From an archaeon (GTDB taxonomy: Archaea; Nanobdellota; Nanobdellia; Pacearchaeales; GW2011-AR1): a stretch of DNA of 51,841 nt. Below are positions 20,424 to 37,868 of this stretch, piece after piece. Numbering within the stretch: position 1 is the first letter of the stretch; every line of letters starts with the position of its first letter. The stretch lies in NCBI GenBank assembly GCA_043811855.1, contig JBDRMT010000039.1, positions 1-51,841 of the forward strand. Direction: 5' to 3'. Position numbers and translations under genes: made by a program. The notes beneath the pieces were generated by a model. It was not told the origin of the DNA and did not search any database. It saw only the letters and a program-made list of their open reading frames with translations.

Positions 20424-21992
20424 TTATTCCCACATTTCTTTTCTTATTTTAGAGATTATTAGTTTTTCCTTAGGATGATTTGCAGTTACATCTGTTACTG
20501 ATATTCTTTCTTCAGTATCAGTAAGTTGAGATTTTCTGTTTGTATAATGTTGTAAGTTAAATTCATTGTTTTGATCTAGTTTATTTTGAATTTGTTTTAC
20601 TCCAAATGGAGCATTTTTAACTAATCTTGGATAGTAGGTTTTTTGTTGATTAAATTTAATTTGAATATCTCCTGAATAAAAATCTAAGTCTTGACCTCCT
20701 GCGCTTAGTTTGTTAAAGGTTTTAAGTGCATAGATTTCTATATCTCTTCCATTAAATTCAACATCATGTTCTATGAATTTTACATATTGTCCTGAAGGAC
20801 TTCCAATTACTTCATTAAGAACCTCTTCTGCATCTATAAATGGGATTATTGAAAATATGTTTAGGAAGGATTTAAGGAGTGGGAGAGAGAGTGCATTTGC
20901 AGTGGGTATAGATGTTTGTTTTTCTGATTCTGATTTTGGTAGATTATTAGGATCATTCCCAATTGTTGCATCTGCAAATTTAAGATTAGTTATTGTTCCC
21001 GGAGGTGTTTTTCCTGCAGCTAGATTTGGAGCTACAAATGCAATATTTTTAGCATCTCCTGTATTGGTTAATGTTCCATCTTGTTGAGGTTTGTTTGCAG
21101 CTATTGCTACATCAGGAACACCTCCTCCTTGAAGTAATCCTCCACCTCCCTCACTAAGACCTATTCCTTGTTGATTTACATTTGTTTGTCCTTTTGCATT
21201 AGTTGCAATACTTTGGTAAGCTTGCATAAAAGGGGCAGAAAACGTAGAAATAAGACCCATATCGTTTCCAAATTGTCTAACAAATTGTTCTGCTCCTGCT
21301 CCAATTCCTCCAAATAATCCTCCTGCTGCAGTGCCTAAACCAGAACCTGCTGCAGCTCCAGCTCCTCCTGCACCACCACCTGACGAACCGCCCCCACTTC
21401 CACTTCCTGTAGCTCCACTTGAAATTCCACCACTTCCACCACTTACCTGACAACTTCCTCCTGCACAACCTTTAACATTATTTACACTTCCTTGCTTAAT
21501 ATCTAATAGACCTCCCTCAGGGTTTCTTATTTGATTATTTCCAGAACTATCAATACTTATTTTAGAGCCTTTGGGTATCTTATCAAGCTCTATGTTTTCA
21601 TCTCCAACTTTAAGAGTTTTAAAATCATTATTTGGAAAAGTTCCAAGGCCTTTTCCTTCTCCTGACAATTTAATATCTTTTTTAGCTAACAATTCAGTAT
21701 TATATTCTCCTGCTTGTTCATCATCCATTGGTTTTTGATGTTCAAATGCTTTTTTTGGATTTTTTGCTAAATTCTCTCCTGATTCTTTTGTACAAGGTTC
21801 TTCTCCATTACATCCAGGGCTATCATAATACTCTTTTCCATCTGTATAAACTCCTTTTCCAAAAGTTCTTAAGTCACTTGAATCAGCTGAACCACTTGAT
21901 GTTGTTGAAATAACAGATATCTGATTAATTATTATTATTAGGGATATTGATAATATTGTTGTAATAATTATTGCATTTATTTTTTTCATCAT
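20424..21992 (-). CDS. Secreted/anchored large protein 'L-A' with a Gly/Ser/Ala-rich central tract; function unknown
   Basis: 522 aa. It has an N-terminal hydrophobic signal or anchor, KINAIIITTILSISLIIII, and the tract GGSGGISSGATGSGSGGGSSGGGAGGAGAAAGSGLG. It lies 36 nt downstream of pilin-like gene P1. Confidence 0.8.
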   Translation of the reverse strand: MMKKINAIIITTILSISLIIIINQISVISTTSSGSADSSDLRTFGKGVYTDGKEYYDSPGCNGEEPCTKESGENLAKNPKKAFEHQKPMDDEQAGEYNTELLAKKDIKLSGEGKGLGTFPNNDFKTLKVGDENIELDKIPKGSKISIDSSGNNQIRNPEGGLLDIKQGSVNNVKGCAGGSCQVSGGSGGISSGATGSGSGGGSSGGGAGGAGAAAGSGLGTAAGGLFGGIGAGAEQFVRQFGNDMGLISTFSAPFMQAYQSIATNAKGQTNVNQQGIGLSEGGGGLLQGGGVPDVAIAANKPQQDGTLTNTGDAKNIAFVAPNLAAGKTPPGTITNLKFADATIGNDPNNLPKSESEKQTSIPTANALSLPLLKSFLNIFSIIPFIDAEEVLNEVIGSPSGQYVKFIEHDVEFNGRDIEIYALKTFNKLSAGGQDLDFYSGDIQIKFNQQKTYYPRLVKNAPFGVKQIQNKLDQNNEFNLQHYTNRKSQLTDTEERISVTDVTANHPKEKLIISKIRKEMWE

Positions 21993-22028
21993 TATTCTTT
22001 TTTATTAAATTTTATTTACTTTTATTAA

Positions 22029-22811
22029 TTATGGTGTTAGGAGCTCTTCTGTTGGAAGAGGATATTTATTTAAAAATTCAAATAAGTAAGGTTGTTCCAT
22101 TGTCTTATTTTCAAGTATCATTACTAAAGTAGAATCTTCTTCAAAAGCTATGAAATCAACATAAAGATTATCTTGTTTTGCCATTTCAGTTATACAGTTG
22201 ATACACATTAAATCTGCATCTTCTTTATGAGAATCTGTTATGTAAGTTGCTAATTTAATTATATCACTTAGTTTTGAATCTATTGTTAGTGAATGTTCTG
22301 AAAGTTCAAAAACAACTACATTATTATCATGGTTTATTTTTGTTGAAAGTGATGTTTTAAAGGTTATTTCTGATTGTTTTATTGTTGTTGTTGTTTGGGG
22401 TTCTGAAAAAGTTACTTCAAAATCTGAAAATTTAATATCTCTAATGCATGAGCCTATTTCATTATCAATAAAATTAGATAATTCAGATTCAATTTCTTGA
22501 GCTGAAGGTTGAAGAAATTCTCCTACATGATAATAATAAGGTACAAAAGTCCATTCCATGTCGTAGTAGTATTTTGGTTTGTTATAATATCCGCCTTGAA
22601 TTCCAGTTCTTATTAGTGCATCTTTAGATGTTGTTTCAAGGCAGTCAATTATAAAACCTTGTATATTATTAACAGTAGGTTGAAGTCCATGCTCTTTAAA
22701 GTAATTTAAATTATGTTCTTCTTTATCTGATTTTAGAAATACAAATAAAAGCACTATTACTACTATAATAACTGCTATTATTATGAAGATTGTTGTCTGC
22801 CCCTTTTTCAT
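22029..22811 (-). CDS. P1: class-III (type IV pilin-like) signal peptide protein, uncharacterised Cys-motif family
   Basis: 260 aa. It has MKKGQTTIFIIIAVIIVVIVLL, conserved DCLE, GIQGGYYNKP, FVPYYY, SCIRD and CINC. Confidence 0.8.
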   Translation of the reverse strand: MKKGQTTIFIIIAVIIVVIVLLFVFLKSDKEEHNLNYFKEHGLQPTVNNIQGFIIDCLETTSKDALIRTGIQGGYYNKPKYYYDMEWTFVPYYYHVGEFLQPSAQEIESELSNFIDNEIGSCIRDIKFSDFEVTFSEPQTTTTIKQSEITFKTSLSTKINHDNNVVVFELSEHSLTIDSKLSDIIKLATYITDSHKEDADLMCINCITEMAKQDNLYVDFIAFEEDSTLVMILENKTMEQPYLFEFLNKYPLPTEELLTP

Positions 22812-22835
22812 TTTTTAATAAAGAATATAGAGTAT

Positions 22836-22923
22836 TTAAGGTTTTTTGGAGGATTTTGTTATTTTTAAATAAACTTAAATTAAGGTTTTTTGGAGGATTT
22901 TGTTATTTTTAAATAAACTTAAA
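22836..22923. repeat. Perfect 44-bp tandem duplication (2 copies) in the P1/P2 divergent promoter region
   Basis: ttaaggttttttggaggattttgttatttttaaataaacttaaa occurs at 22836-22879 and again at 22880-22923. Each copy carries an AT box, tttttaaata. Confidence 0.95.
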
Positions 22924-22946
22924 TATGGGTTTTTGTTAGGTTTATT

Positions 22947-23729
22947 ATGAAAAGAGGACAAACTACTATTTTTATTATTTTAAGTATTGTTATTATAGCA
23001 GTAGTTGTAGTTTTGATTTTTGTTATTAATAATAAAGAAAAAACTGTTGATGATTATTTTTTAAGTTCTGAAGTTAAAGCAATGATGGATTCTTTAATAG
23101 TGGAAGTACAAGGATGTGCTGAAGAAACTTCAATAAATGCTTTAGATACTATTGGGTTTCAAGGAGGTTATTATAATAAACCTGAAAAAGCTTTTGAAGT
23201 AAGTGATCCTGATGAATTAGAGATTTTGGATTTTATTCCATATTATTATTATGAAGGACAGATTTTAGTTCCAACAAGAAATAATGTTGAAAATGAACTT
23301 TCAAAAGCAATTGATTCAGAATTAAGGGATTGTTTAGATAATATTGATTCTGAGCTTGATTTTAGTTATGGTAATTCAAAGAGTTTGGTTGAAATTAAAG
23401 ATAAAGAAGTAATTATTACTATTAAACAAGATATTAAAATTCAGAGAGAAGAACATACAACAACTTATAGGTTAGAAGATAATCCTATTGTTTTAGAGTC
23501 GGGATTAAAAGATATTTTAGAACTTGCTGATTATATGACTGAATCTCGTAAAGAAGAACCAAATAAAGATTGTGTTAGTTGTATTGCAGATGTTGCAGAA
23601 GAAAAAAACCTTTATATTGAAGTTACAAATTTTGATGAAGTTACAACACTTGTTACAATTTATGAAGAATATACAGAACAACAGCAATTGTTAATGTTTT
23701 TAAATAAATTTAAAGAAGAGGATTTGTAA
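22947..23729 (+). CDS. P2: class-III signal peptide protein, same family as P1
   Basis: 260 aa. It has MKRGQTTIFIILSIVIIAVVVV, GCAE, GFQGGYYNKP, FIPYYYY, DCLDN and CVSC. Confidence 0.8.
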   Translation: MKRGQTTIFIILSIVIIAVVVVLIFVINNKEKTVDDYFLSSEVKAMMDSLIVEVQGCAEETSINALDTIGFQGGYYNKPEKAFEVSDPDELEILDFIPYYYYEGQILVPTRNNVENELSKAIDSELRDCLDNIDSELDFSYGNSKSLVEIKDKEVIITIKQDIKIQREEHTTTYRLEDNPIVLESGLKDILELADYMTESRKEEPNKDCVSCIADVAEEKNLYIEVTNFDEVTTLVTIYEEYTEQQQLLMFLNKFKEEDL

Positions 23730-25628
23730 ATGAATAAGATTATTTTGATTATTTGTATGGTGGTTGTTTTGTTAGCTGGATTTATAGTTATGAATCAGGC
23801 AGCAGAAACTACTTCAAATTTTGATGTTAATGATATTAATACTTGGCCTGATAATGGGGGTAAGGTTATTGAAGAAGTTAAAAAAGATTCTAATAAGGTT
23901 AATAGTGTTTTAGCTCAAGCATCTGTAGAGCAGAAAAATAGTTTATCTTATAATATTGTAAATCAAGGTAGAGAATCAAAAATTAATATAGTAGGTTTTG
24001 GTTCATCTGATCTTTTATTTGATAAAGATGGTTTTTTAACAAATGGAAATTCTAAATTAGATTTAAGAAATATCCCAAATGGTGTTAATGAGGTTATTTA
24101 TAATGAAAAAGAAAAGGCTTTTACATTTAAAACTGAAAAAGGGTCAATGGAAGTAAAACAAGGTACTTTAAATGAGGATATGAGTTATACTGTTAATACT
24201 GGAACTCTTCATTTACCAGACGATAAAACAGAAGATAGGATGGTTGATGTTAAATGGAATGGATTAGGAGAAGTTAAACAAACAGGAAAAAATACTTTTG
24301 AATTAAGTGGAGATGCAAAATTTAATGTTGGTAATTTAGATGTTGATTTAAATAAAGAAAGTGGAAGTGTTAAATTTTTTACTTCTGATTTTGGAGATCT
24401 TCATGTTCTTGGAACTAATCTAGATATAAAATTTGATGAGATTTCAAAAGTTTCTTTTCCAGAGGGTGTAGAAACTGAGTTTTTTGTTGGACCTGGTTTG
24501 CCAATTGAGGCAAAAGAATCTTATGTTAAGATAGATTCACCAAAGACAGGAAGAGAAGAATTTCTTGTTAATGATGAAAGAGGAAATCCTAAAGTAGTTT
24601 CAAAGGGAAATTTATTTTCAGAAGATTCATTAAATCGTTATAATAATTTTGTTGATGAAGATATTAAATTAGAAATAGTTGGTGAAGATATAAGTTTAGA
24701 ATTTTTAACAGATAGTCCTAATAAAGAAGCTAAAGTTAATGGAGAAAATATTATAATAAAAAATCAAGGTGTTACTTATGAAATAAAAGGTGCTGAAAAT
24801 GCTAAGGGTGAATGGGTATCTCAGATTTCTTTTAATCATGTTCCTGAAAAAGGACATAATATGGATGTAATTAATCTACAAAATGAAGATGCTAGTGTAT
24901 ATAGAATAAGGCCTAGGATTGAGAATAAAGATTATTATACTTTAACTACATCAACTCCGGACCAGGGTGTTGAAGACCAGGGTGTTAAATCTGCTAATGG
25001 GAGATATGAGCTTGTTCCTGTTGTTGGAATTAGTAAAGACTATGAAAAAGAAGGAAAAACAATAAAAATATATGCAGGGCATGTTTTATTAGATAATGAG
25101 TATGCAAATTTACCTTCTGGACTTAGTAGAGAAGATTTTTTAACTCAAATAGCACCTCTTTCAAAAGGACTTTTAATTGAATTTGGTCCAATAATAGGTT
25201 TAAATGAAGAGCATATAGTTGGTAGTTTGGTTAAGAAAGTGGAAACTTATCAGACTCAGGGCTTATTAAGTAAAAGTGAGGCAGATGAACTTGTTGCATT
25301 TCTTCCAACAGCAATTCCTTTTAAGAATTATAAAACAGAGAGTCTTTTAATGATATCAGGAACAGGTAATTCTCCTACAGTAATTGGTTCTTCATATTTA
25401 GGAACAAGTGCTCCTAATGTTATTCAATTTGCTGAAAATCCTGTAGAGAAAGTTGAGTCTGTTTCATATTTTAAAGGTATGCAACCTAATTATCAGCAAA
25501 GAGAAGCTAGTGCAGTGCAAATAGCTGCATTAAATAAGTTTATTAATTTAAGAGTAGCTGAACCATCAATTTCAGATCCGTTGTATGAGAACTATAAGAA
25601 GCGTCAGAATTTAGTAACTTTTAAATAA
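23730..25628 (+). CDS. Secreted large protein 'L-B'; function unknown
   Basis: 632 aa. It has the signal or anchor MNKIILIICMVVVLLAGFIV and starts immediately after the P2 stop. Its N-terminal ETTSNFDVNDINTWPDNG is shared with L-G (ETNPNFNLDDSNTWLVNG). Confidence 0.85.
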   Translation: MNKIILIICMVVVLLAGFIVMNQAAETTSNFDVNDINTWPDNGGKVIEEVKKDSNKVNSVLAQASVEQKNSLSYNIVNQGRESKINIVGFGSSDLLFDKDGFLTNGNSKLDLRNIPNGVNEVIYNEKEKAFTFKTEKGSMEVKQGTLNEDMSYTVNTGTLHLPDDKTEDRMVDVKWNGLGEVKQTGKNTFELSGDAKFNVGNLDVDLNKESGSVKFFTSDFGDLHVLGTNLDIKFDEISKVSFPEGVETEFFVGPGLPIEAKESYVKIDSPKTGREEFLVNDERGNPKVVSKGNLFSEDSLNRYNNFVDEDIKLEIVGEDISLEFLTDSPNKEAKVNGENIIIKNQGVTYEIKGAENAKGEWVSQISFNHVPEKGHNMDVINLQNEDASVYRIRPRIENKDYYTLTTSTPDQGVEDQGVKSANGRYELVPVVGISKDYEKEGKTIKIYAGHVLLDNEYANLPSGLSREDFLTQIAPLSKGLLIEFGPIIGLNEEHIVGSLVKKVETYQTQGLLSKSEADELVAFLPTAIPFKNYKTESLLMISGTGNSPTVIGSSYLGTSAPNVIQFAENPVEKVESVSYFKGMQPNYQQREASAVQIAALNKFINLRVAEPSISDPLYENYKKRQNLVTFK

Positions 25629-25649
25629 GTAGATTATGTAATTATTAAT

Positions 25650-27443
25650 ATGGAGAAAAAGAGGAGTAAAAATATAATAGCATTTATATTGGTTTTTTTA
25701 GTAGTGGTTATCTTGTTAAGCAGTTTTTTAATAGCTCAGGAAACAACAGGTGAGTATGCTGCAACAACTCCTGAAGAATTGTTAACTAAATATAATAGTA
25801 ATGATCCTAATGATCAAAGTTTTATAATTACTAATTGGAAGGGATTTTCAAGTGAAACAAGAACAAAATTTTTAAGTGACTTGTCTGGGAAAACATTTGT
25901 AGATTTTGGAAGTAATGACCTTAAATTTGAATATGATATTGTTGGGAGTTATGCAAGTATTAGCGATGGAAATATCAAGATTAATTTGAATAGAGATAAA
26001 TTAAATGAAAATATTGTTTCTATTACTTATGTTACAAAAACTATTGATAGTGAAAGCAGGTTAGTTTATGAGTTTGATAAAGGAAAAATTTCAATAGGTT
26101 CTGGAGAAGTAGATAAGGATTTAAGATATACAAATAAAAATGTTCCAACAAGTTTAGAAGATAAAGGTAAAATGTTGCTTATGATTGGAGAAGGTGGAAA
26201 TATTGATATTGATTTTGAAGGAAAAATTTCCTTTAGTAAGGATGATAAAGTGATAGTTGGAAATAGGGAGTTTTTGGTAAATGATAAATCTGAATCAAGT
26301 TCAATTGAGGTTGTTGAGGGAAGTTATTTTAGAGGAGATAATTTATTAGTTAGTACTGATGTTGTTGATATTAAAACTCCTGCTGGAAAATCAACTGATT
26401 TGATTTTTAAAGAAGGAGATTATAAAAAACTTGATAGTTATGTTCAAGTTTTTGATTCTGAAATTAAAGAAGGAGACGAAATTAAAAAATATTTAAATTT
26501 TAATGGCGAAGATATTGATATTAAATTAAAAAAAGAAGGAATGGGAGATAACAAGGTTTATATTGAGGGTGAAGGAAAAGGAAAAGGAGTAAAGATAATT
26601 AATGGAGAAGCTGTAACTGTTAGGAAAAGTGATGATAAAGGCAATCAAATATGGAATTATGAACGTGTTTATAAAAAAACAGATATTGATACTGTTTATA
26701 AGGTTAGTTCTGATAAAGTTATTGAAACAACAGATGGCGTTATAAGAGTTATTTCTAGTAAGGGGGAGTATCATTGTTATGGTCCTGATTGTATTTTGAA
26801 TACTGGTGCAAGGGTTATTAATGCTGAAATAGGGGTTCATGAAGATCATAAAAAACTTAAGAAATTATCCTTAGAAGAGTTTAAGCAAGAAATAGATAAA
26901 TATCCCAAGGAAATAAAGACTATTACATTATTAGGGGGAGATTTAGAAAAGATTGATGAAATAACTGGAAAAAGTGAATCTTATTTATCAACCAAAGATC
27001 AGATTGTTTATAAAGCACATGGTTATATCCTGAAAAAAGATTTAATAGATGGGCATATTGAGAATGCAGTAAAATATAAGTTAAGTGAATTAGATAGAAA
27101 AGTTTTAAGAGAAGTTTTAACTAAAACATTTACAGATTCAGATTATCCCCCCTATACTGAGATTATCTTAAAAACAGGAGATTATAGTTTAGATAAAGGT
27201 TATTTTGATAATCCTTTAGTGAGTATTAGAAGATATATTGGAACTAATATAGAAAAAGGTTGGGTATTTAGTCATGTTGTTTATGAAGAAAATCAGTTTC
27301 AAAAACCTAGTGCAGTAAAAATTTTAGATGAAAACGAGAAAAGAGTTTTTACAGAATATCTGAGATTAGGCACTTCATATGTTGATCCAGATACAAAAAT
27401 TTCTAAAAAAGAAGAATGGTATCAAAAACTAAATAACCCTTGA
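25650..27443 (+). CDS. Secreted large protein 'L-C'; function unknown
   Basis: 597 aa. It has the signal or anchor NIIAFILVFLVVVILLSSFLIAQE, in the same operon as P2 and L-B. Confidence 0.85.
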   Translation: MEKKRSKNIIAFILVFLVVVILLSSFLIAQETTGEYAATTPEELLTKYNSNDPNDQSFIITNWKGFSSETRTKFLSDLSGKTFVDFGSNDLKFEYDIVGSYASISDGNIKINLNRDKLNENIVSITYVTKTIDSESRLVYEFDKGKISIGSGEVDKDLRYTNKNVPTSLEDKGKMLLMIGEGGNIDIDFEGKISFSKDDKVIVGNREFLVNDKSESSSIEVVEGSYFRGDNLLVSTDVVDIKTPAGKSTDLIFKEGDYKKLDSYVQVFDSEIKEGDEIKKYLNFNGEDIDIKLKKEGMGDNKVYIEGEGKGKGVKIINGEAVTVRKSDDKGNQIWNYERVYKKTDIDTVYKVSSDKVIETTDGVIRVISSKGEYHCYGPDCILNTGARVINAEIGVHEDHKKLKKLSLEEFKQEIDKYPKEIKTITLLGGDLEKIDEITGKSESYLSTKDQIVYKAHGYILKKDLIDGHIENAVKYKLSELDRKVLREVLTKTFTDSDYPPYTEIILKTGDYSLDKGYFDNPLVSIRRYIGTNIEKGWVFSHVVYEENQFQKPSAVKILDENEKRVFTEYLRLGTSYVDPDTKISKKEEWYQKLNNP

Positions 27444-27961
27444 TTAGAATCATGTTTTTCTAAAAGATTAAAATAAACTAAGTCTTTTTCTGTAAGTTTA
27501 TTAAAATCTATCCAAGGATATTGTTTTTTAATTTCAACATCTAAATCAGTTAGTTTTACTCCTGCTATTGAATGGGTATCTTTATTAGGTATTTTTATTT
27601 TTAAATCATCTTTAGGATATTGTTCTTGCATTTCAGGTCCACATTCATAAGTACAGGTAGTTATTTGTTTAAGTGCAGGACTTGCATTTTTCCAATAAGC
27701 ATCAAGGTTTTCTTTGTCTTTTTTACTCATTTTAGCAAGTTTTTCTTCACCTAAAACTTGTTTAAAATGCTCTAATTCTGGTTTTTCGCCAGCTTCATAT
27801 CTTTCATAAAATGAAGGTTTATAAGAACTATTATCATTACAACCTAAAGCTGAAGATCCAACATAACCAGCTGTTAAGACTCCAACTGCTCTTTTAAGAA
27901 CATCTCTACGAGTAATATTACCTTGTTTTTCATTTGCTATTTCTTCTAAACTTTCTCTCAT
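27422..27961 (-). CDS. Putative Tat-exported lipoprotein
   Basis: 179 aa. It has a twin-arginine motif TRRDVLK, the h-region RAVGVLTAGYVGSS, and a lipobox ALGC. Confidence 0.6.
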   Translation of the reverse strand: MRESLEEIANEKQGNITRRDVLKRAVGVLTAGYVGSSALGCNDNSSYKPSFYERYEAGEKPELEHFKQVLGEEKLAKMSKKDKENLDAYWKNASPALKQITTCTYECGPEMQEQYPKDDLKIKIPNKDTHSIAGVKLTDLDVEIKKQYPWIDFNKLTEKDLVYFNLLEKHDSNQGLFSF

Positions 27962-28114
27962 TTTTTGTTGTTTTATGTGTTATTTTCTTAATTTATAGGG
28001 GGAATTATACCTTATAAACTCTTTGTTTGTATAAACTGTTTAGTGATAACAAATAGAAAGATTTATAAATGTAGATATATAGAAATTTATATAGTAAATA
28101 GTATTAATTATAAT

Positions 28115-28801
28115 ATGAGATTAATTGATAGATTAAGTAATAGAAAAGCAGGAAGGATTGTACGTGATGGTCTTACTGGTTTAGCTTTGTTAGGTGTATT
28201 TGGTAGTAATTATTGTGCTAGTTCTTATTCTGCCCAAGAAGGTAGACCTGTTCCTGTTAAAGAAACAGAAAAAAGTCCTTCTATTGATTATGTTCCTGGA
28301 AAAACACCTGATTTAGATGAAGTTAGGCTTTATACTGGAAAATTTAGTGAAAAAGATGAAAAAAGATTAAACTTATTAGTTAAAGAAAAAGGGATTAGTT
28401 ATAATTCTAAGAAAGGTTATGTGATTATTACTCCAGAAAATATAGAACTTAGAGAATTGTATAAAAGTTTTAAACATCTTGCTATAATGACAAGAATAGG
28501 TGAAGATTGGAAAACTACTTTAGAAGAGAAAGAATACGTTAGAGAACATGCTCCTGATTTATATAAAGAATTGTATGAGCCAATTAAAGGGCCAAAACAA
28601 GGAAATAAAAAGAAAAAATCAAATTCTAAAAATCCAGGTACTTCTTCAAAAGTAAGATTGAAGTTTAAATCACTTCAAAGATCTCAAATTGAAGCAGAAT
28701 CAGGTAAAATAAGTATCGAGCTTCTTAACGGAATATTTAATGCAGGTGAGCAATTTTTAAAAAATCAAAAAAAGGCTTCTAGCAATTGTAATAAAAAATA
28801 A
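28115..28801 (+). CDS. Secreted/lipoprotein-like hypothetical protein with a Lys-rich C-terminus
   Basis: I start it at the ATG at 28115 (MRLIDRLSNRKAGRIVRDGLTGLALLGVFGSNYCASS). The track starts at a GTG at 28043. Confidence 0.55.
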   Translation: MRLIDRLSNRKAGRIVRDGLTGLALLGVFGSNYCASSYSAQEGRPVPVKETEKSPSIDYVPGKTPDLDEVRLYTGKFSEKDEKRLNLLVKEKGISYNSKKGYVIITPENIELRELYKSFKHLAIMTRIGEDWKTTLEEKEYVREHAPDLYKELYEPIKGPKQGNKKKKSNSKNPGTSSKVRLKFKSLQRSQIEAESGKISIELLNGIFNAGEQFLKNQKKASSNCNKK

Positions 28802-28803
28802 TT

Positions 28804-31533
28804 TTAATGCATATAATAATTAGGTGAATAAACCTGGTATCCTGAGGGTGAGGAGGGATTAGATATTTTTTGTTTTACTAATGTTTTAACAGTAGATTCA
28901 ATTCCATATTTGATTGCATCTGCATTTCTTTTTGCATATAAACTTTGACTTATTCCTTGGTAATATCCTCCATAAACATTAATTCCAATAGATCTCCCAA
29001 ATCTAGTATCACGAGGGTTAATATAAAAATTACCATTATTATCTATTCCACCTGAACCTGCAATAACAGGCAAGACATTTCCAATAAGAGGTCCTGCAAT
29101 AGGATTAATATTATAAGTATTTCCACCTGCTCTTATTTGGTATACATTGTTGCTTGCATCTTTTGTAAATTGCAGATAATTACTCGGGTTAGCTTTAATA
29201 AAACTTCCAATATTGCTTAGTTCTTGTTTAACAAATGAACTTACATCTGATAATCCAATCCCTTGTTCTGCTAGTTGTCCTTGCAAATTTTTATTATTTA
29301 ATACTGTATCTGTTGTAATTTGTCTTATTATATCATTATTAAATTGTGTTTGTCCTCCTGAAAAAGAACTTAAAGAACTGCTTAATCTGCTTGATGTAAC
29401 TGATAAATCTATATTTCCTGAATTTAATACTTGATTATATTTTACATAAAGACTATCTCTAAGTTGGGTTAATTCTTTTCTTTCTTTGTCTGACCATCCA
29501 TCTTGTTGATATTGATAATATAATTTTCTATATTCTTCATTAGCTTGTGCTTCATAAGCTTTAGCTAATGCAATAGAATTACTATCAACCTTATAATCTG
29601 CAGTTAATACATTTTCATAACTTCCTTTATAACCACTATCACCCCAAAATAAAAACCTGTAACCATAACTTACTCCTCCTCCAGCATCAACTTTATATTC
29701 TCCTTTTACACTTTGAAGATCAGTTAAACCCCTAATCCATTTACCATTAGAATTCATATTTACTCCCACTACATTAAGGTTTCCATATTGGTCTGAAAAA
29801 ATATTAATTGCTTGCATTTCATTGAAATTTTTATTAAGAAGATTAAAATTAATATCCTGAAATGAAGTTTCTTTATTATTAATTTTTGCAGGCAGAACAT
29901 ATCCATATGAATTTGCTTGGGCGATATTAACTAGTTTTCCATACGAATCAGTAATTTGTAAACTTCCACCATACATTTCAATATTTTTTAATTTTTTTGC
30001 ATCTTGATTATTTAATTGAATATATAATATTGCTTCAGGATGTTGATTTAAACTACTTAATAATGGATTGTTTAAATTTTTTGAAATAGAGTCAACAGTA
30101 TTGCTAAATGTATTTGCTAAATCTCCTGTAGCACCCACTCCTATGTTTGCATGTCTTAAGACTTTATCTATTACAAATAATCCACCTTCAGAGGTTAGTG
30201 ATTTGATAAGGGGATGTTCTTGAGGCAGGCCAAGTTCTGAAGCAAATTCTGATTTTATTTTTCCTTCTATTGTTTCTAAAGCACTTTTTGCTAAATCAAT
30301 TCCAAATCCAAGCCTTTCTGCAGTTGCAACTGCATTTCGAGCAGTAGTTAGGCTTGATTTAGCAAGCTGAATTTTGCCACTAATACCTGAAATTTTTTCA
30401 TTTAATTTACCCATATAAGAATTAATTTCATTAAATTTTGTTTTAGTATCTCCTAAAGCTCCTCCAGAAACTCTTTCTACATCAGCTTTAGTTATTAGAT
30501 TAGTTTCTAAATCAATCATGATTTTTGATCCTTTTGCTTTATCATAACTTTCGCTATCATAAGTTACTGTAAAGTCTTTTCCAAAAAAATATTTTGAACC
30601 TTCTTTATTTTTATACATATTATTTATTTTTGTTAATTTACCCTTTGAATCAAAAGTAAGTTCACCATCTTTAAGAGCATATAATAGATTCCCTTTATTG
30701 TCATACTCTCCATTAGGATGTCTAAAAACTGAATAAGATTCTTTTTTCGAGTTAGTAAATTCTGCAAAGTTTGTATTATCATTTGCAATACCATCTTTGT
30801 TTTTACCATATTCAAAACTTAATTTAACTTCATTAGTTGATGCATCTATTTTTAAACTTCCTAATCCATTCCATTTTCCTGAAAAAGGATCTTTTTGATC
30901 TACTAATCCATTTTCTCCTACTCTTCCAATTTGCCCTGAGTCTGGATTAAAATAAAAACCTTTTTGAGATTGATCAACTGTTAGGTCTAGAGTGTTTCCA
31001 TTTTGTTTTTTGAAAACTAAAGAACTCGTGCTTCCTTCTTTTTTATATTCAATTGAGGTTATTTTGTTATTCGGATTCTTTTTATTGAACTCTACAACCT
31101 TATCCATTTGGAAAAATCCCTTGCTATTTCCAATGACATTTTTATCTCCAAAAAGAACTGCTTCATTACCCATATTTTTAAAATCTACATTATAATGTTT
31201 TCCATAATTTTGCATAAATGAGTTTTTATCTTGTTCACTTAATCCTTCTAAAAGTGCTCTTTTTTGATCTGTAGTTAAATCCTTTTTCCATTGATTCCAA
31301 AATTCTTTTGTGTCAGAGTTAATATTAGAAATAATTTGTGATTTTTGTTCTGGAGATAGGTTTTCAAGATTCTTTATTAATTCTGGACTTAAAACTCCAT
31401 TATCTTCTAAAGTAAGTAATCCATCTCTAAGATCTTCATCATCATAAGTTGCATTAACTAAACTTAAACATAAGATTATGCTTATTGCAATTAATACTAG
31501 AATATTTTTATTGTTCATTGAAACTTGATACAT
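28804..31533 (-). CDS. Secreted large protein 'L-F'; function unknown
   Basis: 909 aa. It has the signal peptide NILVLIAISIILCLSLVNA|TYDD and overlaps the 3' end of P3. An alternative start is the Met at 31518. Confidence 0.85.
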   Translation of the reverse strand: MYQVSMNNKNILVLIAISIILCLSLVNATYDDEDLRDGLLTLEDNGVLSPELIKNLENLSPEQKSQIISNINSDTKEFWNQWKKDLTTDQKRALLEGLSEQDKNSFMQNYGKHYNVDFKNMGNEAVLFGDKNVIGNSKGFFQMDKVVEFNKKNPNNKITSIEYKKEGSTSSLVFKKQNGNTLDLTVDQSQKGFYFNPDSGQIGRVGENGLVDQKDPFSGKWNGLGSLKIDASTNEVKLSFEYGKNKDGIANDNTNFAEFTNSKKESYSVFRHPNGEYDNKGNLLYALKDGELTFDSKGKLTKINNMYKNKEGSKYFFGKDFTVTYDSESYDKAKGSKIMIDLETNLITKADVERVSGGALGDTKTKFNEINSYMGKLNEKISGISGKIQLAKSSLTTARNAVATAERLGFGIDLAKSALETIEGKIKSEFASELGLPQEHPLIKSLTSEGGLFVIDKVLRHANIGVGATGDLANTFSNTVDSISKNLNNPLLSSLNQHPEAILYIQLNNQDAKKLKNIEMYGGSLQITDSYGKLVNIAQANSYGYVLPAKINNKETSFQDINFNLLNKNFNEMQAINIFSDQYGNLNVVGVNMNSNGKWIRGLTDLQSVKGEYKVDAGGGVSYGYRFLFWGDSGYKGSYENVLTADYKVDSNSIALAKAYEAQANEEYRKLYYQYQQDGWSDKERKELTQLRDSLYVKYNQVLNSGNIDLSVTSSRLSSSLSSFSGGQTQFNNDIIRQITTDTVLNNKNLQGQLAEQGIGLSDVSSFVKQELSNIGSFIKANPSNYLQFTKDASNNVYQIRAGGNTYNINPIAGPLIGNVLPVIAGSGGIDNNGNFYINPRDTRFGRSIGINVYGGYYQGISQSLYAKRNADAIKYGIESTVKTLVKQKISNPSSPSGYQVYSPNYYMH

Positions 31534-32362
31534 TAAAATTTAATTCAAAGTCAGATGGATCATTTTCATAGTTTATGTTATTTTCAACAGGTAGCATATT
31601 TATTTCTTCAAGATCCTTAGTAGCACTTAATGCAAAATTATAAAATCTTGGATAATTTTCTTCTTTTATATCATAAATTGTAACAATCAACATGTTATTT
31701 AGTGAGTCATCAAATTCTACAATTAGTTCATAGTCTATTGCTATTTCTTGAATGCAACTTATACAGACTGATTCTTTATTAATATCATAAGAAAATGCAA
31801 TATAAGATGCAAGGGAATTTATACCATATAATTTAGATTTAATATTTATTGTTGAATCACTAAAGTCTATTATGTTTGTTGAATTATCTTGAGTTAGTAT
31901 TAAATTTAAATTATTAATTATGTTTATGTTACCTTCTGAAATACTTATATTAGATAATGAATAAGAATAATCATATTCAACAATGTCTGTATCTATTAAT
32001 TCAAAACAATTATTTTTTTTAGAATCTATATATAGAGCTATTTGTTCTTGTATTAGAATAATTTCTGGAATATATTCTAATTCTCCAAAATAATAAAATG
32101 GAATAGAATTTAAATCATTTTTCAAATACATACTTAATGGTTCATAAAAATAACCTCCTTGTAAAGAAACTGTATTTATTGCTTCTTTATGTAATTCTTC
32201 AAAACAATCTCTTACTTGATTATCAATAATTTCTGTTTGTTTTTTAAAACTAAGGGTTGAAATGTCATCTGGATTAGAATTATTATATATAATAAAAAAT
32301 ACTATAACAGCTACTATGACAATTGCTATTATTATGAATATTGTTGTCTGCCCCTTTTTCAT
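31508..32362 (-). CDS. P3: class-III signal peptide protein, same family as P1
   Basis: 284 aa. It has MKKGQTTIFIIIAIVIVAVIVFF, DCFE, SLQGGYFYEP, SIPFYYF, NCFEL and CISC. Confidence 0.8.
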   Translation of the reverse strand: MKKGQTTIFIIIAIVIVAVIVFFIIYNNSNPDDISTLSFKKQTEIIDNQVRDCFEELHKEAINTVSLQGGYFYEPLSMYLKNDLNSIPFYYFGELEYIPEIILIQEQIALYIDSKKNNCFELIDTDIVEYDYSYSLSNISISEGNINIINNLNLILTQDNSTNIIDFSDSTINIKSKLYGINSLASYIAFSYDINKESVCISCIQEIAIDYELIVEFDDSLNNMLIVTIYDIKEENYPRFYNFALSATKDLEEINMLPVENNINYENDPSDFELNFNVSSFNEQ

Positions 32363-32415
32363 AAAGTAAATAAATAAAAGGATTATATAAATTTAATGAA
32401 TTAGTTAGAAATAAT

Positions 32416-34392
32416 TTAATATTCATAAACAGGTTCATATTCTTTAAGTTGGAAGTTATTTGTCATCACACTATTTATATCTTTAACAGGCATCCAAATG
32501 TCTTGACTTTCACGATATTTAAAAAATTGACCTTTTATAAATGCTACTCTTGTTCCACTAGTTAGAGTATATGAATAATCTGCATTACCTAAATTTTTAG
32601 TTTCTGTCTTTCCATTTTCCCTAACTTTAACTTTAATATTTTCATGAGTTTCTAAAGATGTTGAAAGATCTTCTCCTATAACTTGTCCATAATATGTTTT
32701 TAACATTTCGCTTTGTTTTATTTTTTCACCACTAGTAATTATTGAATTTTTTATTTCTTTTTTTATTCCTGTTTCAGAAACAGTTTCAAGCTGAACACCT
32801 GAAGTTGTACTTTCTAGTGCTATTCTTGTTTCTCCCAGAGTTGTAGGAATTTCTGTTTGTTCTTGCATTTTTTGAGGGCTACTATCCATAACCTCTCTTA
32901 CTTCTGGGCTGATTGATCTTTCACTGCCTCCTGTTGATATTGTTTTTCTAGGTTCTTCAGATGGTGCATCTTCTTGATTAGTAACAAGAGTAAATTCTTC
33001 AGTTCTATCTACATTAACATAATCTTCTTCATCTATATCTTCATCATAAAGAGTAATTATTGGTTCTTGATTTTTTTTGATGGTTACATCATTTTCACCA
33101 ACACTTAAACTATTTTCTTTTCCAACATTAAATTTTATACCTTTACTTGCTAATCTTTCATCTATCTTTGTACTGACTATTCCTTTGATAGCTACCCCAT
33201 CTTCATATATTGATTTATCTGTAATACTTATAACTCTTTCACCATCCTGAGCTATGTAATCTCCTGTTAGATATTTTCCATTTAAATCTAAAGTTGCTAT
33301 TCCATCAAGTTCTATATCTGGTATTTTAACACCCTCTATAGTGCTTCTTAGTGCTGCATTTTTACCTCTAACCCTCATTATTCCATCTTCTATCATACTA
33401 ACCTCAAAAAATCCTTGTTTTTTAGCAGTGATAAAAGAATTATCTAAATCTATTATTGCATCTCCCCATCCTTTTATACTATTTTTTTCAATAAAGACTA
33501 TACCTTTTGCTCCTAAATCAACCCTTATATCTCTTTCTATGCCATCTTTACCTATGTTTCCTTTTGCAACCCAGTCTTTGTTTTCTTTCATTTCAAGATA
33601 AGTTCCAGGATTAGCTGCCATATATCTATCATTGTCTATTTCGTAAGTCATATAAGAACCTTCAGAAGCATCTACAAGACCAATACGTTTTATATTCATT
33701 GGGACATTTTTTAATGGAAGAATATGTTCTTTTCCTGAAGAATCTGTTATAATCATTCTTTCAAAATCATTATCATTCTTATATTGTAATTTTATGTTTT
33801 TTGATATTTGACTTCCATCAGGATTTAGGAGATAAACATTTTTATCCATTAATGATGATAAGAATTCTTGTTTTTGTACATTATCTATTTTGTTTAATAA
33901 TTGTTCACTTTCTAGAATTTCTAGAAATTCTTGAGTTCTTGAAACTGCAAAAGGGTCTGAAGATATTCCTTTATCAGATTCTTTTGTTATTTCAAGTATT
34001 TTTTTTAGATTATTTCCTGCATTTTCAATATTTCCAGATTCTTTCATTTGTTGAATTATTATTTTTTTATAATCTTTTCCTATTGCAGTATAAAAGGCAG
34101 TTTTATCTTTAAGAGTTAGTTCTTTATTATTTATAACTTCTTGAAAAAGGTCATGTTTTTTTTGATGGCTGATTTGTGCAAATTGATCATCTAACCAATA
34201 AACATCTTGAGGAGCATTATTCTTAACTTTACTAACAATTAATTCTAAATTTGTCTGAGATAATTCACCATTAACAAGCCAGGTATTAGAATCATCTAGA
34301 TTAAAATTAGGATTTGTCTCGCTATTAACAACTACAAAGCTAGTTAAAAGTATTAGAGATATTATGGTTATTAAAAAAATTCTTTTTATCAT
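32416..34392 (-). CDS. Secreted large protein 'L-G'; function unknown
   Basis: 658 aa. It has the signal or anchor MIKRIFLITIISLILLTSFVVV and an ATGA overlap with the P4 stop. It shares an N-terminal motif with L-B. Confidence 0.85.
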   Translation of the reverse strand: MIKRIFLITIISLILLTSFVVVNSETNPNFNLDDSNTWLVNGELSQTNLELIVSKVKNNAPQDVYWLDDQFAQISHQKKHDLFQEVINNKELTLKDKTAFYTAIGKDYKKIIIQQMKESGNIENAGNNLKKILEITKESDKGISSDPFAVSRTQEFLEILESEQLLNKIDNVQKQEFLSSLMDKNVYLLNPDGSQISKNIKLQYKNDNDFERMIITDSSGKEHILPLKNVPMNIKRIGLVDASEGSYMTYEIDNDRYMAANPGTYLEMKENKDWVAKGNIGKDGIERDIRVDLGAKGIVFIEKNSIKGWGDAIIDLDNSFITAKKQGFFEVSMIEDGIMRVRGKNAALRSTIEGVKIPDIELDGIATLDLNGKYLTGDYIAQDGERVISITDKSIYEDGVAIKGIVSTKIDERLASKGIKFNVGKENSLSVGENDVTIKKNQEPIITLYDEDIDEEDYVNVDRTEEFTLVTNQEDAPSEEPRKTISTGGSERSISPEVREVMDSSPQKMQEQTEIPTTLGETRIALESTTSGVQLETVSETGIKKEIKNSIITSGEKIKQSEMLKTYYGQVIGEDLSTSLETHENIKVKVRENGKTETKNLGNADYSYTLTSGTRVAFIKGQFFKYRESQDIWMPVKDINSVMTNNFQLKEYEPVYEY

Positions 34393-35222
34393 ACTAGTGG
34401 TGGTGGAGTAGGAGTATTTCCTTGAGTTTCAGATAAAGGTGTTACTTCGTTTCCTGTGTATCTATTTAAAAACTCAAAACTATAAGGTTCTGATGAGATA
34501 TGATTTTCTGATATTACAATTAGCATTTCATTTTCTTGGAAATTTATTATATCTACATAAAGCTCATTTTCTTCTGCCATTTCACTAACACAAGTAATAC
34601 AATACATTGAAGGATCTTGTTTATGGGTTTCTGTTATATAATCTGCAATATTTAATATAGCAGATAGTTCTGATGGTATTATTACTGGATAATCTGCTGT
34701 TTCGTAAACAATAGAGTGTTTATCTTTTTTAATTTTTATAGGAAGATCTATTTCAAATAAAACTTGCTCATCTTCAATAGTTGTTTTTGATCTTGCCTTT
34801 GTATATTCTAATTCAAATCCTTCTGATGAAACTGATTTTATACAGTTTGTTATTTCTTTTTCATTAAATTTTGAAAGTTCAATTTCAACTTCTTGTTTTG
34901 AAGGCATTAGATATCGTCCTTGATTATAATAATAAGGGATAAATGTCCATCCTAAATCAAAGTAATCTTTTGAATTTAATGGTCTTTCATAAAGTCCTCC
35001 TTGAATTCCTATTGTTTGTAAAGATTCTTTAGAAGCAGATTCAAGGCAATTTTGTATATTTATTTGAACAGAGTTTAGAGATGATTTAATTTCTGAACTT
35101 GAAAAGAATTCTTTAGCAACATCTGTTTTTTTATTTTGAACAATAATATAGCTTGTTCCTGCAACAGCTGCAAAAATAACTATTGCTATTATGATAAATA
35201 CTGTTGTCTGCCCCTTTTTCAT
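34389..35222 (-). CDS. P4: class-III signal peptide protein, same family as P1
   Basis: I start it at the ATG at 35222 (MKKGQTTVFIIIAIVIFAAV). The track starts at a TTG at 35231. It has NCLE, GIQGGLYERP, FIPYYYN, NCIKS, CITC and a Pro-rich C-terminus TPTPPPLV. Confidence 0.8.
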   Translation of the reverse strand: MKKGQTTVFIIIAIVIFAAVAGTSYIIVQNKKTDVAKEFFSSSEIKSSLNSVQINIQNCLESASKESLQTIGIQGGLYERPLNSKDYFDLGWTFIPYYYNQGRYLMPSKQEVEIELSKFNEKEITNCIKSVSSEGFELEYTKARSKTTIEDEQVLFEIDLPIKIKKDKHSIVYETADYPVIIPSELSAILNIADYITETHKQDPSMYCITCVSEMAEENELYVDIINFQENEMLIVISENHISSEPYSFEFLNRYTGNEVTPLSETQGNTPTPPPLV

Positions 35223-35264
35223 GAACAACAAAAGATAATTATACTTATAAATTTATCTAAAAAC

Positions 35265-36170
35265 ATGAAACCTATTGTTAATATATATAAGCCTATTGGA
35301 TTAAGTCCATTACAAGCTATTGAAAAGTTTAAAATTAAACATAGAGAATATAAGAAAGTAAAAATAGGTTATGCAGGAAGATTAGACCCAATGGCTGAAG
35401 GAGTTTTGATTTGTTTGGTTGGAGATGAGAATAAAAAGATTGGGCAGTATATGAGATTTGATAAAGAATATAAAGCTGAGATTTTGTTAGGTTTAAAAAG
35501 TGATACTAATGATGTTTTAGGTGTTGTTGAGAAGGTTGGTATTGGTAATTTACAAAAGGATATGCAAGGTCAGGCAGAAGTTAGCAATAAAGGAGAGAGT
35601 CCTAGAAGTTTATCAGATACTAAGAGTTGTAAGAATATTAGTAATTTACAAACTGACAAGGATGAGGGGTCTTCAAGCGAGAGAGATAGTAATTTAAAAG
35701 GTTTGTTAGATACTAAGGTTAAAGAACTAAAGAAAAAAATTAAAAGTTTAAAAGGAAAATATGAACAAAAAATTCCAAAATATTCTTCATATAGAATTAA
35801 GGGAAAGCCAATGTTTTATTATGCTTTAAAAGGGAAGAAGGTTAAGGAGATTAAAAAGGAAGTTGAGATAAAAAGTGTAAAGATAAATTCTATATATAAT
35901 ATAGGAAGCAATAAATTGCTTCGTTATGTTGTTGAGAAGATTAGTAAGGTTGATGGTAAGTTTAGGCAGGATGAAATTGTTGATAGATGGAAGAAGGTTT
36001 TAGATGGAAAGGATGAGGGTGATAAGAGGTTTGTTGTAGTTGATGTTACTATTAGTTGTTCATCAGGAACTTATATTAGAGCAATTGCAGAAGATGTTGG
36101 TGGTTTGTTATTAAGTTTGAAAAGAACTAGGGTTGGGAAGTTTGATGTTAGAGATAGTGAGAGGGTTTGA
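35265..36170 (+). CDS. truB: tRNA pseudouridine(55) synthase TruB-type, with a ~60-aa hydrophilic insertion
   Basis: I start it at the ATG at 35265 (MKPIVNIYKPIGLSP). It has the catalytic motif GYAGRLDPMAEGVL and DKEYKAEILLGLKSDTNDVLG. The insertion is about 35538-35717. The track ORF starts at 35136 inside the divergent P4 gene. Confidence 0.8.
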   Translation: MKPIVNIYKPIGLSPLQAIEKFKIKHREYKKVKIGYAGRLDPMAEGVLICLVGDENKKIGQYMRFDKEYKAEILLGLKSDTNDVLGVVEKVGIGNLQKDMQGQAEVSNKGESPRSLSDTKSCKNISNLQTDKDEGSSSERDSNLKGLLDTKVKELKKKIKSLKGKYEQKIPKYSSYRIKGKPMFYYALKGKKVKEIKKEVEIKSVKINSIYNIGSNKLLRYVVEKISKVDGKFRQDEIVDRWKKVLDGKDEGDKRFVVVDVTISCSSGTYIRAIAEDVGGLLLSLKRTRVGKFDVRDSERV

Positions 36171-36223
36171 TATAATTAAAATTCAAACACCAACTTTAAA
36201 TATATCTTTTTCTTTTTAGAACA

Positions 36224-36976
36224 ATGAGAAAGAGGAAGGTTAAGGCACAAGTTACAATTATAATTATAGTTGCAATAGTTATAGTGGGTGTGATTTTAGC
36301 AATTTATGCAATTAATATAAAAACATCTCCAAAATTTAATAGTTATGATGATACTCAGATAAATCAAATTAATAAACAAATATATTATTGTATTGAACAA
36401 AGGGCAATTGATGTGATTTACTTGCTAGGACTTCAAGGAGGCTATGTAAATATTCCAGATGATTATGTAACAACAGACTTATCTGATGTTGCATATGGAT
36501 TAAAAGATAATCAAAATAAATTACCAACAGTTTTAGAAGTTGAAAATGAGATTTCAGGTTATATAGATTTTTCAAGCACATATTGTTTAGATAAAGATTT
36601 TCTTGAAGAAACATATGATATTCAAACAGATTTTAAAGATTCAGAAACAAGAGTTAAAATAAAAGACAATTCTGTTGAAATTGAGGTTTATATGCCTGTT
36701 GTTCTTACAAAAGGTGAAGCAACTTATGAGTTTGATGAAAAGTATAATTATGAAATACCAATAAGACTTGGAAAAATAATAAATATTGCAAATCAAATTA
36801 TTGAGAAACAAAAACAAAGTGAAGATAATATTCCTTTAACTTACTTGTCAAATATTGAAACTAAAATTATTTTTGATTATATTGATAGTGAAACAATTGT
36901 ATATATTATACATGATGAAGAATCAAAAGTAGATGAAACAATTTATAATTTTATGTTTGCTTTAGAAATTGGATAA
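36224..36976 (+). CDS. P5: divergent member of the class-III signal peptide family (lacks the CxxC motif)
   Basis: 250 aa. It has MRKRKVKAQVTIIIIVAIVIVGVILA, YCIE, GLQGGYVNIP and YCLDK, with no CxxC. The IS is inserted directly after its stop codon. Confidence 0.7.
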   Translation: MRKRKVKAQVTIIIIVAIVIVGVILAIYAINIKTSPKFNSYDDTQINQINKQIYYCIEQRAIDVIYLLGLQGGYVNIPDDYVTTDLSDVAYGLKDNQNKLPTVLEVENEISGYIDFSSTYCLDKDFLEETYDIQTDFKDSETRVKIKDNSVEIEVYMPVVLTKGEATYEFDEKYNYEIPIRLGKIINIANQIIEKQKQSEDNIPLTYLSNIETKIIFDYIDSETIVYIIHDEESKVDETIYNFMFALEIG

Positions 36977-37014
36977 TGAAGATTAGTGTCCTGGTTCAGG
37001 ACATATGTCACTAG

Positions 37015-37716: not shown

Positions 37717-37868
37717 TCTTCAGAATTTATTCTTTTAGTCCATCTTTTTAGAGTCCTTACATTAACTTCATAGCTTAATAAAGCGAGAAGTATTTTTCTA
37801 CATTGTGAATAGGAATGACCTTTAATTCTTAATTTAAAAAATTCTTTTCTTATTTCTTCTTTTTTCAT
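37653..37868 (-). CDS. IS transposase OrfA (HTH DNA-binding part)
   Basis: 71 aa, MKKEEIRKEFFKLRIKGHSYSQCRKIL...RTLKRW. In the OrfA frame the heptamer A AAA AAT sits at 37680-37686, inside the overlap with OrfB. Confidence 0.75.
   Translation of the reverse strand: MKKEEIRKEFFKLRIKGHSYSQCRKILLALLSYEVNVRTLKRWTKRINSEEWDLMDSSRKPKNILLKLPEI

Follow-up and report, generated by a model that had tools for sequence, protein, structure and literature searches.

Cognate gene pairs for pilin-like proteins and sequon-poor secreted partners in a putative cell-surface island of Pacearchaeal and Woesearchaeal archaea

The DNA considered here, called the window below, is a stretch of 51,841 nucleotides (nt) from an archaeon of the Pacearchaeales (contig JBDRMT010000039.1, assembly GCA_043811855.1). 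It carries five genes, P1 to P5, for proteins of 250-284 amino acids (aa) with a pilin-like N-terminus, and a set of genes, named L, for large proteins with a Sec-type signal (Table 1). The window has a G+C content of 27%, and its gene content is that of a chromosome, including glycosyltransferases, an ABC exporter, gyrB, gyrA, TruB, TGT, HisRS, tRNA-His and a rhomboid protease. All ten open reading frames (ORFs) named in the initial annotation of this DNA were found again at their coordinates, and the paralogy that it had proposed for P1-P5 was evident in an all-against-all BLASTP comparison (E values from 9e-68 to 5e-3; 25-42% identity). The arrangement of the genes was also as described: four of the five paralogues are followed on the same strand by an L gene, whose product measures 522-909 aa and has a Sec-type signal, with the spacings given in Table 1. 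The P4 ORF reaches a TTG at 35231, but the ATG at 35222 fits the N-terminus of the family. As argued below, the locus would be a conserved cell-surface island of Pace- and Woesearchaeal (DPANN) archaea, built of cognate two-gene units.

Table 1. Features of the P-L island and its border in the window; a slash in an N-terminal sequence marks the putative processing site, and negative spacings are overlaps.
Feature	Position	Strand	Length	Spacing	Description
L-A	20424..21992	-	522 aa	36 nt after P1	Sec-type signal
P1	22029..22811	-	260 aa		Candidate pilin-like carrier; N-terminus MKKG/QTTIFIIIAVIIV; Cys 57, 122, 203, 206
P1/P2 intergenic region	22812..22946		135 nt		Divergent
P2	22947..23729	+	260 aa		Candidate pilin-like carrier; N-terminus MKRG/QTTIFIILS...
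L-B	23730..25628	+	632 aa	0 nt from P2 stop	Sec-type signal
L-C	25650..27443	+	597 aa	21 nt after L-B	Sec-type signal; second L without a P of its own
L-F	28804..31533	-	909 aa	-26 nt (overlap with P3 end)	Sec-type signal
P3	31508..32362	-	284 aa		Candidate pilin-like carrier
L-G	32416..34392	-	658 aa	-4 nt (ATGA overlap with P4)	Sec-type signal
P4	34389..35222	-	277 aa from ATG		Candidate pilin-like carrier
P5	36224..36976	+	250 aa		Degenerate paralogue; N-terminus MRKRKVKA/QVTIIII...; no L partner here
Insertion sequence (IS)	36988..37954	-			rve-type integrase gene 37015-37716 (-); outside the module

Related loci were taken from GTDB species representatives (33 loci) and from metagenomes (two loci), and they are numbered L001 to L035. 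Adjacency of P and L was counted in 34 further loci from Pacearchaeota, Woesearchaeota and Nanoarchaeota, which hold 45 P genes; five of these lie at contig ends, leaving 40 that are informative. Directly behind 29 of the 40, on the same strand, we found a gene for a protein of 400-930 aa with a signal peptide, which supports the proposal, first made from the window, that P and L form a functional pair. Most gaps between the two genes lie between -77 and +76 nt and a few reach 361 nt; overlaps of the frames are frequent. Behind five more P genes an L-A homologue is found just past inserted small or toxin-antitoxin genes, which brings the count to 34 of 40; three of the remaining genes are followed by another P and three have no same-strand partner. 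A genome usually possesses three to five P copies.

The two genes also vary together: P subtype predicts L type, and the units are cognate pairs. In none of 5000 label permutations were P proteins with a common L family as close to one another as they are in the observed data. The same pattern can be read from trees of P built by neighbour joining (NJ) on p-distances, where the clade of P1, with L-A homologues behind its P genes, has a bootstrap of 86%. P3 groups with the P proteins of L014, L017 and L033, all followed by L-F homologues (62%), and P4 groups with the P proteins that precede a family of 633-765 aa, named 'L10', in L003, L007 and L019 (50%). Of the L-A family, the window has one member and the related loci have 20, making 21 in all, and the majority follow a P gene. 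The L-F family has five members, four of which come directly after a P3-type gene, overlapping it or lying 1 nt away from it; the homologues in L014, L017 and L033 measure 899-929 aa. Further families found after P are the L-B/L-C family, 'L10' and 'L13', while no homologue of L-G was present among the fetched loci.

The position of the island in the chromosome is conserved as well, since it adjoins TruB in 11 loci and gyrase in about nine. The gene order in L002 is HisRS, rhomboid, TruB, P, L-A, a 362-aa protein, L-A, gyrA, cupin and gyrB, and in another relative it is TGT, rhomboid, TruB, P, P, L814, L610, L1029, L772 and, farther on, P, a toxin-antitoxin module and L-A. Long DNA repeats among the five copies are confined to the codons of the shared N-terminus and two conserved motifs. 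Because these repeats are limited to short stretches at conserved codons, the copies appear to be old, and a recent duplication or gene conversion as the origin of the five P genes was rejected. The initial annotation had read the locus as one pair amplified and diversified in place; this part of it did not hold, because the P genes are old paralogues with orthologues in other genomes and with a conserved position near TruB and gyrase. The window is thus a typical, well-populated example of a lineage-wide island and not a local five-fold amplification.

Concerning the P family itself, a profile built from the five paralogues retrieved 180 proteins in a word search, while an exhaustive HMMER scan gave 7,699 representatives at 50% identity with E <= 1e-3, 4,861 of them with E <= 1e-10, counts which derive from metagenomes carrying no taxonomy. 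Among the best matches listed, nearly all homologues measure 240-290 aa and align from end to end. Almost all are recorded as 'hypothetical protein', no member of the family carries a Pfam domain, and the sources that are named are Pacearchaeota, Woesearchaeota, Nanoarchaeota or simply 'archaeon'. No earlier description of the P family, or of its pairing with L, was found in the literature and libraries searched. An alignment of 67 P proteins revealed six invariant residues (Q5, C57, G73, G74, C122 and F246; P1 numbering is used throughout) and a larger group that is nearly so, consisting of Q72, Y75, P79, P91-Y-Y-Y94, G97, P102, S179, H195, C203 and C206 and, in the C-terminal part, D219, N235, T237 and F244-x-F-L-N-x-Y250. 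The ectodomain holds two conserved Cys pairs. It also holds a near-invariant N-x-T sequon at 235-237 (N in 62 and T in 61 of 67), which may be a conserved N-glycosylation site.

Structure models were made for P1 and for L-A, each alone. The AlphaFold2 (AF2) model of P1 is confident (predicted local distance difference test score, pLDDT, 91; predicted template modelling score, pTM, 0.81) and consists of a long N-terminal helix (residues 3-40) followed by a mixed alpha/beta domain. Searched with Foldseek against the PDB, this model gave nothing at E <= 1e-3, the best match having E 0.02 and matches reaching template modelling (TM) scores of about 0.2-0.3; no pilin or archaellin was among the top 50 PDB matches. 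No credible match was found among viral structures either (TM <= 0.3), and a PDB sequence-profile search with P returned nothing relevant. Scans of all P and L proteins against Pfam and NCBIfam gave matches at chance level, with no model of a pilin or of a class III N-terminus among them. The initial impression that P and L belong to no described family was therefore sustained in Pfam, NCBIfam, the PDB profile search and Foldseek (P1 and L-A models).

The N-terminus of P follows a fixed scheme. In the 67 aligned proteins the leader is basic, has a variable length of 3 to about 40 residues and always terminates in [KR or similar]-[G/A/S]; Gln stands at the start of the hydrophobic stretch in 67 of 67, and the sequence [TV]-[TS]-[IV]-F-I-I-x-A comes after it. 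Counting this Gln as +1, position -1 is Ala in 19, Gly in 19 and Ser in 6 of 44 P genes from the window and the loci, position +3 is Thr or Ser in 64 of the 67 aligned proteins, and position +5 is Phe in 59 and never Glu. F9, I10, I11 and A13 are conserved at 88-94%. Each P has a single hydrophobic segment, at about residues 5-27, as expected for the hydrophobic domain (H-domain) of a class III signal, and P1-P4 are nearly identical in their first 17 residues, yet 28-42% identical overall. This resembles the situation in Haloferax, where six PilA paralogues share their H-domain. At the DNA level, P1, P3 and P4 have an identical first 21 nt (ATGAAAAAGGGGCAGACAACA; 22791-22811, 32342-32362 and 35202-35222, minus strand), which contains GGG and CAG codons, expected to be uncommon at 27% G+C; P2 and P5 start with a resembling peptide written in different codons. 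A nucleotide-level signal at the invariant Gln codon was considered and rejected, as CAG accounts for 34% there and for 24% elsewhere in P genes (n = 44).

The class III signal that had been suggested for P fits these sequences, with their variable leader, their Gly, Ala or Ser at -1 and their invariant Gln at +1. We favour it because a plain signal anchor needs no fixed residue behind a leader of variable length. The best-supported interpretation, judged from the sequences, is that of an EppA-type class III (prepilin) signature from which the leader would be cleaved. The EppA-type (DUF361-like) pilin motif is Q-x-S-x-E-x-x-x-L, of which P has the Gln at +1 and lacks the combination of Ser/Thr at +3 with Glu at +5. 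In Methanococcus maripaludis, the Epd pilins are processed at KGQV, KGQI, KGQL and RAQI, and a Gln at +1 is required by EppA and rejected by FlaK (PMC4371748).

Every L protein has a Sec-type signal and no further membrane segment. The L proteins do not form one BLAST family: the pair L-B/L-C alone matches, weakly (E 3e-4), and L-B is weakly related also to the protein encoded at L006:3124-4851. In L-A, a Gly-rich linker joins a variable N-terminal part to a conserved domain of about 125 aa at the C-terminus (G401-W521). This domain retains 56-62% identity in genomes whose L-A is otherwise not alignable; P1-type proteins are likewise 54-62% identical. A profile of the domain also picks up, in related genomes, an internal domain of several further L types (E 2e-9 to 1e-5). 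Word-based searches for L-A homologues returned 13 and 6 proteins, which we attribute to the Gly-rich linker filling the candidate list; the few homologues gave a shallow alignment and hence a mediocre AF2 model, confident only in part (pLDDT 60), and Foldseek found no match for it. The motif FDVNDINTW stands immediately past the signal peptide in L-B and FNLDDSNTW in the same place in L-G. The general form F-[DNK]-x-x-[DN]-x-S-T-W is found there in both proteins and in members of three further groups; the corresponding position of L-A proteins is occupied by a CxxxxC pair. The mature forms of L-B, L-F and L-G contain no cysteine at all.

A further property of the L proteins is a depletion of N-glycosylation sequons. 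In 39 L-type proteins from the window and the loci, N-x-S/T occurs 19 times against 234.5 expected (ratio 0.08, a depletion of about 12-fold). Within the window the observed number is zero in L-A (5.5 expected), L-B (6.7), L-C (4.4) and L-G (6.3) and two in L-F (13.4 expected). A protein of 1591 aa encoded at 39218-43993 (-), which combines a Sec-type signal with a Fic (AMPylation) domain at its C-terminus, contains zero as well, against 14.7 expected, and the shuffle P is <= 0.007 for each of these six window proteins. Another 14 large neighbours whose N-terminus contains a hydrophobic segment are depleted as well (4 observed, 82 expected). The P family has 111 sequons against 115.9 expected (ratio 0.96), and gyrase, TruB, TGT and HisRS together have 65 against 71.7 (ratio 0.91), with normal counts in the gyrB (8 against 7.3) and gyrA (7 against 8.5) of the window. 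Control motifs are normal in the L-type set: the ratio is 0.92 for S/T-x-N, 1.24 for D-x-S/T and 1.09 for Q-x-S/T. The depletion implies that L resides outside the cytoplasm, where it is exposed to the oligosaccharyltransferase, and that a glycan anywhere on L is strongly selected against. No earlier report of sequon depletion in DPANN archaea was found in the literature. The secreted Fic protein is a candidate host-directed effector. A Fic protein is also encoded beside L-A in L009; a link between the two was rejected, since the L009 protein has no signal, is cytoplasmic and has a normal sequon count.

On this basis we propose a mechanism in which P is a pilin-like carrier that docks its cognate L and displays or exports it at the interface with the host. 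We hold this reading tentatively, at a little under even chances. A class III signal peptidase would cut P after [KR]-[G/A/S], leaving an N-terminal Gln ahead of a conserved hydrophobic helix of about 21 residues, and this helix would either keep P in the membrane or be taken up by a type IV filament machinery, P being then a low-abundance minor or tip subunit. Since translation of the two genes is coupled, roughly 1:1 amounts of P and L are suggested, which fits poorly with a major pilin. L, exported via Sec, would bind the ectodomain of its cognate P through a conserved, type-specific segment, possibly the C-terminal domain of about 125 aa in L-A and the post-signal motif F-x-x-x-D/N-x-S/N-T-W in the L-B and L-G types. 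P could then keep L attached to the cell surface or transport it outward; the part of L that evolves fast would be turned towards the host, and L would have to remain free of N-glycans. Leader cleavage, physical P-L binding, incorporation into a filament and a host-contact role are steps that we infer, and adhesion or host contact as the role of the module is to be read in the same way.

Several known systems resemble parts of this scheme. The Epd pilins of M. maripaludis, which belong to type IV filament (TFF) system 1, share with P the KGQ/RAQ site, the Gln at +1, the basic leader and the H-domain, as well as the presence of several paralogues per genome encoded apart from the machinery (PMC4371748). 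P differs from them in having Phe and not Glu at +5, in matching no pilin Pfam model, in carrying a globular domain (about 220 aa) for whose fold no match was found, where the main Epd pilin has no globular domain, and in the fact that no gene for EppA or for the machinery was seen near P (in the window or in the first 25 of the 73 neighbour Pfam families listed). In the Sulfolobus bindosome, class III signals are found on large surface proteins that are not pilins and whose assembly needs PilB/PilC-type components (PMC4371748); the subunits there are, however, recognisable substrate-binding proteins, whereas P has no known domain and a separate secreted partner. The closest logic is perhaps that of the type IVb minor pilins TcpB of Vibrio cholerae and CofB of enterotoxigenic Escherichia coli (ETEC), which are reported to bind and export TcpF and CofJ, Sec-secreted proteins of the same operon (PMC9565799, PMC10120004, PMC6048534). 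As in P-L, a pilin gene and a Sec-exported, anchorless partner are encoded together. The bacterial systems, however, have one pair per pilus operon, placed inside the machinery operon, whereas here we found four or five cognate pairs, no linked machinery and partners of 500-900 aa; there is no similarity of sequence or fold, and the resemblance is one of logic only. The secreted partner of a type IVb minor pilin binds through a short N-terminal segment, to which the post-signal motif of the L-B and L-G types might be compared, a comparison that is only a lead.

A number of observations weigh against the carrier reading. No gene for a secretion ATPase, a platform protein or a prepilin peptidase was found in the window (42 of 45 ORFs of at least 100 aa scanned), nor was pilus machinery found within about 6 kb of 33 related loci among the first 25 of 73 Pfam families listed (105 neighbours, L001-L035), the neighbours of related P loci being housekeeping genes and toxin-antitoxin modules. 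According to one study, DPANN genomes lack type IV pilus components (bioRxiv 2020.05.14.094862). The P ectodomain has no match among solved pilins and archaellins, nor to any Pfam model of pilins, Phe replaces the Glu that is typical of EppA substrates at +5, and some P genes have no L (three loci with P-P tandems, three partnerless P genes and the P5 of the window). The ectodomain is also unusually conserved for a pilin (QGGYY, PYYY, H195, C203-x-x-C206, D219 and FLNKY), and it could instead have an enzymatic or a fixed structural role. It should be noted, however, that the lack of linked machinery does not exclude the function, because archaeal pilin genes are often unlinked to their machinery. 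TFF system 1 (Epd-like) has been reported in DPANN (bioRxiv 10.64898/2026.04.22.720090), and FlaI, FlaJ and FlaK in Woesearchaeota (PMC8407392). Published accounts of such machinery in this group disagree.

The same facts can be read differently, the likeliest alternative being that P is a plain membrane anchor or stalk, working without filament machinery. The N-terminal helix, whether cleaved or not, would remain in the membrane, and P would hold the anchorless L, through its ectodomain, as an outer coat, in a two-component surface layer. The surface layer (S-layer) of the Sulfolobales follows such a logic, with a small membrane-anchored subunit and a large anchorless outer one encoded by adjacent genes (SlaB and SlaA), as is the case for P and L. 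A single N-terminal membrane helix in P, the 1:1 amounts suggested by coupled translation, the lack of linked pilus genes, the strong conservation expected of a structural base and a fixed chromosomal position among housekeeping genes are all in agreement with it. This reading leaves unexplained, however, the invariant Gln after Gly, Ala or Ser, the leader of variable length and the nearly identical H-domains of the paralogues. Moreover, SlaB has a C-terminal anchor and a Sec signal, whereas the sole membrane helix of P is N-terminal; archaeal S-layer proteins are typically rich in N-glycans, whereas L is almost sequon-free; no homology links the two systems; and it would be unusual for one cell to have four or five different coats. 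We therefore regard an anchor with its coat as rather unlikely, although it deserves to be kept in mind. The conserved ectodomain would be explained differently if P were a membrane-tethered maturation factor of L, that is, a foldase, a thiol- or metal-dependent enzyme or a processing protease. The near-invariant Q72-G-G-Y, P91-Y-Y-Y, S179, H195, D219 and N235 do suggest a site and not a surface, C203-x-x-C206 lies at a helix N-terminus in the P1 model, and P is far better conserved than L. Nevertheless, P has no likeness of fold or sequence to any enzyme, a general enzyme needs no separate paralogue co-varying with each L type, P5 was retained despite the loss of the CxxC pair and of other motifs, and the mature L-B, L-F and L-G have no cysteine, for which reason a disulfide oxidoreductase acting on L was rejected. 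A maturation factor is on the whole improbable.

The pairing itself might be questioned, P and L being then merely co-located surface genes of a variable genomic island that do not interact directly. Not every gene of the island is in fact paired: no P accompanies L-C in the window or the second L-A of L002 and of L031, some P genes lack an L, and insertions of toxin-antitoxin modules and IS elements are common in the island. The order P-then-L with overlapping or abutting frames recurs, however, in 29 of 40 cases across genera, and P subtype tracks L type (0 of 5000 permutations), so that simple co-location appears very improbable. In the opposite direction, one may go farther than the carrier reading and suppose that L and the secreted 1591-aa Fic protein are cargo moved into or onto the host by a pseudopilus-like device, each P being the adaptor for one type of cargo. 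The nucleotides that Fic enzymes use are found only within cells, and a purge of sequons common to L and to such an enzyme suggests a class of proteins travelling beyond the symbiont surface into or onto the host. Comparable sequon depletion has reportedly been seen in apicoplast-targeted proteins of apicomplexans. If this were true, the system would correspond, in archaea, to type II or type IVb pilus-dependent secretion, and the loss of sequons would mark a further narrow translocation step or an insertion into a foreign membrane; we give the cargo hypothesis a small probability.

Pacearchaeota and Woesearchaeota are abundant, uncultured and of minimal metabolism, and the former appear to be firmly attached to their hosts. 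With thousands of clusters at 50% identity, a putative prepilin-type signal and secreted partners that diversify, the P-L module is a widespread candidate for a host-attachment apparatus. Earlier surveys had left the cognate pilins of nanoarchaeal secretion ATPases unidentified (PMC4858521). What is new here is the P family and the P-L pairing, while a protein with a class III signal working together with a secreted partner is already known. The carrier model predicts an N-terminal Gln or pyroglutamate on mature P, P-L complexes, and an unglycosylated L beside glycosylated surface proteins. The sequon-free signature is, in addition, a simple sequence mark that could flag the same exported class in other DPANN genomes.

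P5 deserves separate mention, being degenerate in that it has neither the CxxC pair nor the PYYY motif. Its nearest relative, with a bootstrap of 83%, is the P protein encoded at L004:639-1436, which is followed by a protein of 678 aa. The IS beside P5 had been described as inserted exactly at the stop codon; its 18-nt terminal inverted repeats (36997-37014 and 37927-37944) and the flanking 16-nt direct repeat (36972-36987 and 37955-37970, overlapping the P5 stop TAA at 36974-36976) place the insertion 11 nt past the stop instead. Because the 16-nt target duplication is intact, the element is a simple insertion with nothing deleted, and it was rejected as the reason for the missing L of P5; once the IS is removed, the next gene is an ORF of 99 aa (38004-38303) and not an L. 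A target duplication of 16 nt is unusually long.

Other features of the island and its surroundings were noted. Most of the region between P1 and P2 is occupied by a 44-nt tandem repeat (2.3 copies, 94% matching; 22836-22935), and since each unit contains a TATA-like TTTTTAAATAAAC, the promoters may be duplicated. Between L-C and L-F there are two small divergent ORFs, 27422-27961 (-) and 28043-28801 (+), both with N-termini resembling twin-arginine or lipoprotein signals (RRDVLK...GC), and the former has a weak homologue beside L-F in L033. On a 112,616-nt JGI contig from a close relative (P0013, P0019, P0106), the island is followed by genes for MinD/ParA-like, CheY, CheW, dCache and KaiC-like ATPase proteins and, after this MinD/CheY cluster, by one for a Big-domain protein of 3019 aa; the neighbourhood may be connected with chemosensing or with an appendage. 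The TruB ORF of the window (35136-36170, +) encodes 344 aa, against 248-275 aa in most relatives, and contains a Ser/Lys/Glu-rich insertion, estimated by eye at 60-70 aa, that divides the TruB_N match in two; the TTG start listed for it overlaps P4 and is probably too far upstream. Finally, gyrB (9739-12939) and gyrA (14278-18075) contain one intein each, the two inteins being 35% identical. Immediately upstream of gyrB, and overlapping its predicted start, is an ORF for a LAGLIDADG endonuclease (8826-9761).

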